Sequence record: PV467749.1
Direction: 5' to 3' (one strand)
Length of the DNA stretch: 64,000 bases
Source: a phage
The notes beneath the pieces are model-generated. The model was not told where the DNA came from. It ran no database searches and worked only from the letters and a program-made list of their open reading frames with translations. The translations under genes were made by a program, and so were the position numbers. Below are positions 41,594 to 42,559 of the stretch, one piece after another. The first letter of the stretch is position 1. Every line of letters begins with the position of its first letter.

Positions 41594-42559
41594 TTAAAAA
41601 TCTTCGAACTCATAACCTTTTGTCTTAACCATCTTACGCAGTCGTTCCATTGCTTCAGAGTACTTACGGTGCAATGAAGAACGAGCAGTCATGACCTTAC
41701 CCTTCTCATCTTCAAAACCACTCTCAATGATTTCTCGTAGCGTTTCTGGTTCAGAATAAGAACCAATACCATGTACACGTTCAATCAATTCACGGTCTTT
41801 GGCAGATAGGTTACTCATCATTTCTGCAATACTTTGTACCAGTGGGGTACTGACAGTTTCTACGCCTAAGTTGTAATCAGGTTCAACTGAAGTAACAATG
41901 TCAGATAATGTACTTTCTGAATCATTACTCATTTTCATATTCAATGCTACATAAGTGTTATTGTAAGTTAGACAATTCTTAACGTGTTGAATCTCAATAC
42001 CAGTCTCTTTTGACACCATCTCAGGAGTTGGGTATTTACCATGTTTCCTTTGATACTCTTCTACACAACGTTTCACATAAATGTTATTAACACTCATATA
42101 ACGTGGGAAATGCACTAGATAATTAGCATCCGCACTTTCGTTATAGATTGTCATGTACACAGTTGTTGTTGCATATGTAATGAACTTAACATTTTTGGTA
42201 GTGTCGAACGTATGAATTGCTCGCATTAAACCTTCAACACCATAAGAAATCTTATCTTCAAATGGGATAAAACATGTACACTTACGTGCAACACTTACTA
42301 CCATTGGATAGTTGTAGCGAACCAAAAGGTCAATGTTCTTTTCAACGTCAATACCATCACGCACTGCTTGGATGAGCATTTCATTCGTTATCCCTTTAGG
42401 GCGAGTTAAGCTGATACCTGTTTTTGGTTTCTCAAACTTGTGACCGTCATGTTCTTCTTCTTCGACGGAATCAAGAGCCTCTAATACGTTGACTTCTTCA
42501 CTAGCAAAACACTCATCCAGTACTTCTTCAGAAATTGCATTTAAATCAAGCTTTTTCAC
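41594..42559 (-). CDS. Sigma-70-family RNA polymerase sigma factor (phage-encoded)
   Basis: 321 aa; acidic N-terminus; region-2-like ..YGVEGLMRAIHTFDTTKNVKFITYATTTVYMTI.. and region-4-like C-terminus ..LSAKDRELIERVHGIG..TLREIIE.. Confidence 0.65.
   Translation of the reverse strand: MKKLDLNAISEEVLDECFASEEVNVLEALDSVEEEEHDGHKFEKPKTGISLTRPKGITNEMLIQAVRDGIDVEKNIDLLVRYNYPMVVSVARKCTCFIPFEDKISYGVEGLMRAIHTFDTTKNVKFITYATTTVYMTIYNESADANYLVHFPRYMSVNNIYVKRCVEEYQRKHGKYPTPEMVSKETGIEIQHVKNCLTYNNTYVALNMKMSNDSESTLSDIVTSVEPDYNLGVETVSTPLVQSIAEMMSNLSAKDRELIERVHGIGSYSEPETLREIIESGFEDEKGKVMTARSSLHRKYSEAMERLRKMVKTKGYEFEDF

Follow-up and report, generated by a model that had tools for sequence, protein, structure and literature searches.

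In Bacillus phage SPO1 an early phage sigma factor redirects the host core RNA polymerase to the middle genes and a further phage sigma factor handles the late genes, and in T4 the late promoter TATAAATA is read by gp55. The SPO1 cascade is summarised in PMC13401047, and the T4 late consensus and its reading by gp55 are given in the description of phage CBB (PMC5259590). The 'group 2' jumbo phages are without a polymerase of their own and encode a minimal sigma factor, an RpoD-like sigma factor and a gp33 orthologue (Iyer et al., PMC7824862); the RpoD-like gene is mentioned in the CBB (PMC5259590), phAPEC6 (PMC7247149) and fEgEco12 (PMC13070987) papers, and the CBB authors placed theirs in an early region with RpoD promoters (PMC5259590). 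We analysed a 64,000-nucleotide stretch of phage DNA (PV467749.1; the whole stretch is referred to here as the window) that carries a gene of this family at 41594-42559. The gene encodes a sigma-70-family protein, and we lean towards its being a divergent sigma factor that would bind core polymerase and direct promoter-specific initiation. Its targets may be a class of middle-type promoters; a proposal made earlier from the letters of this DNA (the original prediction), that it reads the promoters of an array of RCC1-like genes, appears improbable.

The window comes from a Rak2-like (Asteriusvirus-type) jumbo phage of Escherichia coli. The region is 99.0-99.6% identical to the E. coli jumbo phages WPEC5, WPEC3, fEgEco12, Ecwhy_1, Turkey3, vB_Ec-M-J, BF17 and EC.P1 (350-385 kb), and most of those records annotate this open reading frame (ORF) as 'RNA polymerase sigma factor'; the sigma identity of the gene is already known and public, and the original observation is confirmed, not new. 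Its relatives range from 99 to 33% identity over 98-100% of the length, with 59% in the 121Q/PBECO4-type Asteriusvirus, about 39% in RaK2, and 33-37% in Munch, EJP2, BF, Yen9-04 and CBB/GAP32. All close relatives carry the gene, and in at least five phage genera the protein retains the whole of its sigma2-sigma3-sigma4 layout; a scan of IMG/VR for contigs bearing this sigma gene returned five full relatives, every one a known phage. The fEgEco12 paper states that the sigma factor, Gp519, is 'completely absent' from Ecwhy_1 (PMC13070987). Ecwhy_1 matches the region 41000-43200 at 99.4% nucleotide identity with the annotation 'similar to RNA polymerase sigma factor', and the reported absence is probably an artefact of annotation or clustering.

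The gene and its ribosome-binding site are placed as follows.

41594..42559, minus strand: gene for an RpoD-like sigma factor of the sigma-70 family, 321 amino acids (aa), from profile matches, alignments and an AlphaFold2 (AF2) model
42566..42570, minus strand: Shine-Dalgarno sequence AGGAG, 6 nt from the GTG start, read directly from the sequence

The ORF is present exactly as the original prediction had it. It starts with GTG (42559-42557), a start that is correct since the N-terminus MKKLDLN is common to all homologues. The protein consists of an acidic N-terminal tail of 50 residues that is predicted to be disordered, followed by sigma2 (about residues 51-145), sigma3 (about 153-224) and sigma4 (about 240-316). 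Pfam Sigma70_r2 (PF04542) matches residues 79-141 with E = 2.6e-9 (37.2 bits, cut-off 24) and Sigma70_r3 (PF04539) residues 162-224 with E = 1.3e-11 (44.9 bits, cut-off 25.3), so that significant sigma-70 domain hits are in place. The sole PHROG to match this protein is PHROG 351, annotated 'RNA polymerase sigma factor', which covers its full length (E = 3.8e-48); an hhalign comparison of a 15-member family profile with E. coli RpoD covers RpoD residues 378-576 at 99% probability (E = 2.3e-18), and the best relatives in the PDB are mycobacterial SigB and SigA and E. coli RpoS and RpoD (E = 1e-17 to 1e-14). In the AF2 model sigma2, sigma3 and sigma4 are confident (predicted local distance difference test, pLDDT, 70-88; 79-88 for the sigma2 helices) with poorly predicted linkers between them, and Foldseek searches of the PDB with this model returned sigma factors only (sigmaS, SigA, sigma70) over 250-283 aligned columns. 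The two Pfam domains, PHROG 351, hhalign, Foldseek and the public annotation all agree with the identity first proposed.

Within the family the protein is divergent. Among the NCBIfam models, those for RpoD, RpoS and SigB, along with others, give E-values of 1e-27 to 1e-12 (RpoD_Cterm 2.5e-27) but stay far under their equivalog cut-offs (for the curated RpoD/RpoS models TIGR02393 and TIGR02394, 96 bits against 354 and 81.8 against 378.7, respectively), and Pfam Sigma70_r1_2, the model for region 1.2 of group 1 and 2 sigma factors, has no match. On both counts the protein falls outside groups 1 and 2 (RpoD/RpoS-type). The ECF (extracytoplasmic function, group 4) sigma factors were excluded by the sigma3 domain, and the T4 gp55 late-sigma family by the phmmer result with T4 gp55 (E = 0.16) and by the match to PHROG 351 only.

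Region 4 is probably present but atypical. The original prediction had quoted two strings as signatures, and both fall where it put them: GLMRAIHTFD..KFITYATTTVYMTI aligns to RpoD GLMKAVDKFE..KFSTYATWWIRQAI, corresponding to regions 2.2-2.4, and ELIERVHGIG..TLREIIE aligns to RpoD KVLRMRFGID..TLEEVGK, corresponding to region 4.1 and the first helix of 4.2 (RpoD 553-576). After this first helix of the helix-turn-helix (HTH; TLREI), an insertion of 8 residues, GFEDEKGK (about 281-288), occupies the turn; it recurs in the phage family as GF.D.KGK, with G281, D284 and G287 invariant. The AF2 model has a helix at 274-279, a beta-hairpin at 283-289 formed by the insertion, and a long helix at 293-313 (pLDDT 78-84). 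The recognition helix lies beyond residue 277, where its placement comes from the AF2 model plus manual and MAFFT alignment only; it reads A-R-S-S-L-H-R-K-Y opposite T583-R-E-R-I-R-Q-I-E591 of sigma-70, with R584 kept, R588 replaced by H and Q589 by R.

The regions that contact the -10 element are also altered. In region 2.3/2.4 the phage sequence KFITYATTTVYMTIYN corresponds to KFSTYATWWIRQAITR of sigma-70; of the sigma-70 residues here, F419 and Y430 are retained, two undergo conservative changes (E420D, R423K), and others are replaced (Y425V, W433T, W434T, Q437M, T440Y). In region 3.0 the residues that touch the TG of the extended -10 element have been exchanged as well (H455Y, E458V). In lacking the tryptophan dyad the protein brings to mind some alternative sigma factors. 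An alignment of the phage family has 38 invariant and 28 near-invariant columns, which include TYA in region 2.3, PRY.SV in region 3.0 and the HRKY helix, and as the substitutions are conserved inside the family we regard them as functional features and not as decay.

We then carried out a census of promoters in the upstream regions of TH47, a near-identical phage (96-97%) with an unannotated genome of 352,450 bp, and obtained three classes. Class I has the host consensus, of the TTGACA-N17-TATAAT type, with 57 sites of which 56 are on the gene strand. Class II consists of (G/A)(G/A)GAC(A/G), exactly 13 nt, and TG(A/C)TA(T/C)AAT: 25 of the 112 minus-strand TGnTAYAAT sites have RGACR at the 13-nt offset, compared with 0-2 at any other offset and none on the plus strand (P ~ 2e-44). 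Genes behind class II sites are those for SSB, UvsX, primase, a DnaB-type helicase, the large and small ribonucleotide reductase subunits, a Dda-like helicase, topoisomerase II, thymidylate synthase and an exonuclease, and a class II site is found upstream of a gp55-like sigma gene in TH47, PBECO4, SNUABM_47 and CBB. Class III is TAAATA, 2-3 nt, and a GTATA-like sequence, situated 25-50 nt before start codons on both strands; it occurs in 53 upstream regions, with ATAAATA enriched 16-fold upstream of genes, and precedes the genes for the major head protein, tail sheath, tail fiber, a tail protein, and virion structural proteins of 3322 and 498 aa. Once these three classes were masked no fourth motif was enriched, and the leftover sigma-70-like upstream regions are weak class I variants only. 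The CBB supplementary table lists a 7-mer, 13 nt and TGnTATAAT before DNA-synthesis genes and the CBB gp55-like gene (PMC5259590). The CBB motif TGAAACG is not enriched in the phage studied here, where the equivalent class uses a different hexamer. In the window, classes II and III are represented by the following sites.

41531..41558, minus strand: class II promoter GGGACA-N13-TGATACAAT, directly after the sigma terminator; candidate target of the RpoD-like factor
63617..63644, minus strand: second class II promoter, GGGACA-N13-TGATATAAT
982..17683, plus strand: twelve class III cassette promoters TAAATA-N2-(G/T)TATAA(T/C), each behind a terminator hairpin
47297..47311, plus strand: class III motif TAAATACGTTATAAT, upstream of the isolated gene 47334-48491

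An equivalent of the class II site at 41531..41558 is present at the matching position in 121Q.

The class II element differs between lineages. It is G(G/A)GACA in TH47, with TGA in 20 of 25 sites; GGGACA and GAGACA in PBECO4, both with TGC; GGAACG with TGG in the BF-like SNUABM_47; and G(A/G)AAC(G/A) in CBB, with TGG in 10 of 17 sites. The base that follows TG differs significantly between TH47 and CBB (Fisher p = 1e-4), and class I stays TTGACA in both. The hosts of the compared phages are all Enterobacterales, in which region 4.2 of sigma-70 is highly conserved; a hexamer that drifts between lineages while the host reader is constant implies a reader encoded by the phage. The recognition helix is (A/S)RSS(L/I)HRKY here and in 121Q, SHSTIHRRY in the BF-like phage and SKATLSRRY in CBB; 121Q/PBECO4 has nearly the same helix as the phage studied here and keeps the hexamer, as predicted. 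Because hexamer and recognition helix change together across lineages, because class II is the sole class left and drives middle-type genes along with the late sigma gene, and because its -35-like element departs from that of the host just where region 4 is most altered, we assign this sigma factor to class II promoters, an assignment that we put at roughly even chance.

The RCC1-like array consists of about 15 paralogues on the plus strand (1-18825). Each cassette comprises a terminator hairpin, a T-run, GATTAAATATAGTATAATGAATAAAGGAGG and then ATG, the promoter being TAAATA-N2-GTATAAT at 26 nt before the ATG. The cassettes scarcely differ from one another in the 5' ends of their genes (ATGTTACCTTTTG...), in their ribosome-binding sites, or in their late-type promoters and terminator hairpins. 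TAAATA-N2-NTATAA occurs 13 times in the window, always on the plus strand, and 12 of these occurrences are in the array; the remaining one precedes the gene at 47334-48491, a 'structural protein' in the fEgEco12 annotation. At the class II position the cassette promoters carry no RGACR hexamer, and the TG is missing too; since they have the TAAATA motif and neither of these elements, they are strong members of the T4-like late class.

A second sigma gene is encoded outside the window. In TH47 it lies at 267309-268247 (312 aa) and matches phrog_12791, 'sigma factor for late transcription', with E = 5.9e-152 and the gp55 family phrog_234 with E = 1.5e-16, although a single-sequence phmmer search with T4 gp55 did not find it convincingly (E = 0.033). 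This late sigma factor is 68-93% identical across the genera of the clade and homologous to cyanophage gp55 proteins, and its gene is followed by those for gp47 and gp46, which is the 55-47-46 order of T4. An ORF of 187 aa (TH47 60177-60740) with a weak match to gp55 and sigma was dropped from consideration as it belongs to an unannotated PHROG. The array promoters are most likely read by the gp55-type sigma factor and not by the protein of 41594-42559. For phAPEC6, 11 RCC1-like genes are reported and none is listed among the virion proteins detected by mass spectrometry (PMC7247149), so that late expression of the array is read from its promoter class only.

The match of three sigma factors to three promoter classes, with no fourth enriched motif, suggests a relay. 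In the cascade that we favour on balance, host sigma-70 would transcribe the operon of the sigma gene early from class I promoters; the RpoD-like sigma factor would bind host core RNA polymerase, the phage having no polymerase of its own, and redirect it to class II promoters of genes for replication and nucleotide metabolism and of the gp55-type late sigma gene; and the gp55-like factor would read the late TAAATA promoters, including those of the RCC1 array. The core binding, the timing and the class II assignment are the conjectural steps. The first step draws on the transcription signals around the gene, which we list here.

45492..45521, minus strand: class I promoter TTGACT-18-TATAAT, heading the sigma operon
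44127..44155, minus strand: class I promoter TTGACG-17-TATAAT, inside the operon
43806..43834, minus strand: class I-like promoter TTGACT-17-TACAAT, inside the operon
40998..41026, minus strand: class I promoter TTGACA-17-TAGAAT, serving the genes that come next downstream
42582..45454, minus strand: seven upstream genes in the same orientation as the sigma gene and closely packed with it, each encoding a small protein of unknown function
42582-43079, minus strand: the immediate neighbour, weakly HslV-like (phrog_1040, E = 2.8e-6; no Pfam match)
41557..41589, minus strand: intrinsic terminator of the operon, an 11-bp stem AAAGGGUUGAC/GUCAGCCUUU with a UUCG loop and seven U (free energy -13.9 kcal/mol)

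The three promoters at 45521, 44155 and 43834 are at the head of or within an eight-gene unit in which the sigma gene is last, and a single weak terminator-like hairpin (43815-43799) is flagged between them and the sigma gene. Given host-type promoters in this arrangement and only one weak hairpin intervening, we expect the sigma gene to be expressed early, by host holoenzyme. The window has 16 consensus sigma-70 promoters TTGAC(A/T)-N16-18-TATAAT, every one of them a minus-strand site within 22-60 kb. The intrinsic terminator begins two bases past the sigma stop codon; it was missed by the terminator scan and confirmed by folding.

Three other explanations were considered. The original prediction suggested that the sigma factor reads the RCC1 cassette promoters, which by extension would mean the whole TAAATA class, and there is some logic to this: the cassette promoters are non-canonical for sigma-70, in that they have a perfect TATAAT with no TG and no -35 element at 16-18 nt, and a protein whose -10-reading residues are altered would be expected to use a different type of promoter. 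The cassette motif, however, is a strong version of the genome-wide TAAATA class that stands before head, tail sheath, tail fiber and virion genes, it matches the gp55-read T4 late consensus in a clade with a conserved, dedicated gp55-family late sigma factor, and it is reported likewise for CBB and GAP32 although the RpoD-like sigma factor is only 33-59% identical across the clade. The array promoters also lack the hexamer and TG that define the sole class showing co-variation with this sigma factor between lineages, and we regard this proposal as improbable. More improbable still is that the protein does not initiate transcription and acts as a decoy or competitor, tying up host core polymerase or an anti-sigma factor, or that the gene is in decay. 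The diverged core-contact residues of region 2.2 and DNA-contact residues, and the position of the gene inside a trough of divergence from 121Q, are as these readings would have it, whereas the complete three-domain architecture with its invariant and near-invariant columns across at least five genera, the intact reading frame with a strong Shine-Dalgarno sequence, and the conservation of the gene in all close relatives argue against them.

The third explanation is a more serious one, although we consider it unlikely: host sigma-70 may read class II promoters as extended -10 promoters, possibly aided, as in the MotA/AsiA system of T4, by a phage activator that sits on the RGACR hexamer, and the phage sigma factor may replace an inactivated sigma-70 at ordinary promoters or read a small set of promoters that escaped recognition. 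A perfect TGnTATAAT is sufficient for sigma-70 without a -35 element. Class II promoters carry exactly this sequence, and the phage protein is without H455, E458, W433, W434, Q437 and T440, so that the melting dyad and the residues that read -12 and TG are gone; host sigma-70 could thus suffice for initiation at class II. T4 middle promoters likewise pair a sigma-70 -10 element, often with TG, with a phage-specific upstream box. Together with this mismatch between promoter and protein, several further observations weigh against our assignment of the phage sigma factor to class II. Pfam Sigma70_r4 and r4_2 have no match even at E <= 1, such that the Pfam check proposed with the original prediction bore out region 2 and not region 4, and the hhalign alignment to RpoD ends at residue 277 and leaves the recognition helix outside; both are accounted for by the 8-residue insertion that follows the first HTH helix. 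Several of the region 2.2 residues by which sigma-70 contacts the beta-prime coiled coil are altered (Q406S, E407Y, N409V). The co-variation comprises three helix and hexamer combinations only and gives no one-to-one rule of residue to base. The literature searched holds no transcript, transcription start site or time-course data for this phage clade, nor any experimental determination of the promoters read by this sigma factor. Against a role for sigma-70 at class II, on the other hand, the lineage-specific base that follows TG (A or G) is not explained by an upstream activator, the hexamer is at the exact -35 position with rigid spacing, homologues of AsiA and MotA were not detected in what was a weak test, and no fourth promoter class is left for the phage sigma factor, the residual sigma-70-like regions being weak class I variants.

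In its fullest form, the cascade from host sigma-70 to the RpoD-like and then the gp55-like sigma factor would have a dedicated middle sigma factor with a clade-specific HTH beta-hairpin that reads a non-host -35 element (GGGACA here, TGAAACG in CBB) co-evolving with the recognition helix, and would combine an SPO1-style relay with a T4-style late step; we put this forward tentatively, at a little under an even chance. The census suggests a clean and testable layout of three sigma factors and three promoter classes. The GGGACA and TGAAACG lineages constitute a natural pair of specificity variants that could be used for domain swaps, and the apparent late expression of the RCC1-like array alongside virion genes bears on the role of those enigmatic proteins.

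The sigma gene and its HslV-like upstream neighbour (41594-43079) form the divergence trough noted above, with 45-78% nucleotide identity to 121Q per 60-nt block, and the genes on either side are 85-100% identical to 121Q. One genus has two sigma alleles (59% protein identity), and its gp55-like late sigma factor is 93% identical. Read jointly with the dedicated middle-sigma cascade, the sigma gene could be a hotspot of recombination or divergence, a view that we likewise put at a little under an even chance. The neighbour is annotated as 'ATP-dependent protease subunit HslV' in some records; it is translationally close to the sigma gene and co-diverges with it. In CBB, a 1.2-kb stretch without annotated genes (307-1531 of the CBB extract) is located just upstream of the pair of transcriptional regulator and sigma genes (CBB_511-513).

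Beyond the array the window contains a long run of small minus-strand genes. The hairpin GGTTGACTTCGGTCAGCC with a T-run has seven minus-strand copies, at 41585, 33461, 29866, 29087, 27506, 26824 and 22202. In four of them the hairpin's own TTGACT serves as the -35 element of a TATAAT 17-18 nt downstream to give a combined terminator-promoter module; a late-type TAAATA motif follows two copies, and a class II promoter follows the copy behind the sigma gene. This class II promoter enters a spacer of about 600-660 nt that is non-coding (40934-41530, minus strand), with no Rfam match in a permissive scan and no ORF above 45 aa. Its distal 480 nt are 97-100% identical to 121Q and its minimum free energy z-score is only -2.0. 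A conserved non-coding RNA was looked for here, with the empty Rfam result and the weak z-score as outcome. The near-identity to 121Q loses its force in a sliding comparison, in which the flanking sequences match 121Q at 85-98% too and the sigma gene is the outlier. An HNH endonuclease gene stands in place of about 450 nt of the spacer in TH47, and a further HNH gene occupies 39704-40588; the spacer could be a long leader or non-coding RNA, or a co-conversion tract of a homing endonuclease. A group I intron lies on the minus strand at 56433-56747, where Rfam RF00028 matches over the full length of the model with 99 bits; it is inside the tRNA gene cluster, between tRNA-Asn (56080-56153) and tRNA-Ser (56847-56936).

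The closest counterparts of the gene are the sigma factors of the Rak2-like 'group 2' phages (121Q gp167, RaK2, CBB_513, GAP32, fEgEco12 g519 and phAPEC6), which belong to the same gene family and likewise occupy an early region, made up of small genes with RpoD-like promoters ahead of them. The same gene is carried at 99% identity or above by fEgEco12, WPEC3/5, Ecwhy_1 and Turkey3, and nothing essential sets the gene apart from this family, although its allele is only 59% identical to that of 121Q/PBECO4 amid neighbouring genes with 85-98% DNA identity. With bacterial RpoD and RpoS and mycobacterial SigB the protein shares the sigma2 and sigma3 folds and, in the AF2 model, the sigma4 fold, and is colinear from region 2.1 to 4.1 (RpoD 378-576) at about 24% identity; unlike these group 1 and 2 factors, it is without region 1.1, a detectable region 1.2 and the non-conserved domain, has its tryptophan dyad and its -12 and TG contacts replaced, and contains the 8-aa insertion in the HTH turn.

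The comparison with T4 has two sides. The T4 gp55 system is matched by a true gp55 homologue, by the 55-47-46 gene order, and by TAAATA promoters before the structural genes and the RCC1 array, whereas the gene at 41594-42559 encodes a separate protein that is no relative of gp55. As with the T4 middle promoters, for which sigma-70 is appropriated by AsiA and MotA and a MotA box is paired with a sigma-70 -10 element, class II has a host-like (extended) -10 element and a phage-specific upstream element, and drives replication genes and the late sigma gene; it differs in that the element is at -35 with a rigid 16-nt spacer, and that in place of AsiA and MotA, of which the same weak test detected no homologue, there is a full-length phage sigma factor. 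The cascade proposed here would follow the same logic as that of SPO1 gp28 and gp33/34, in which a host-read early gene supplies a middle phage sigma factor and a further one acts late. Kinship to the SPO1 factors is family-level at closest; the middle promoters here keep a host-like -10 element, and the late step would use a minimal sigma factor of the T4 gp55 type and not a second factor of the sigma-70 type.

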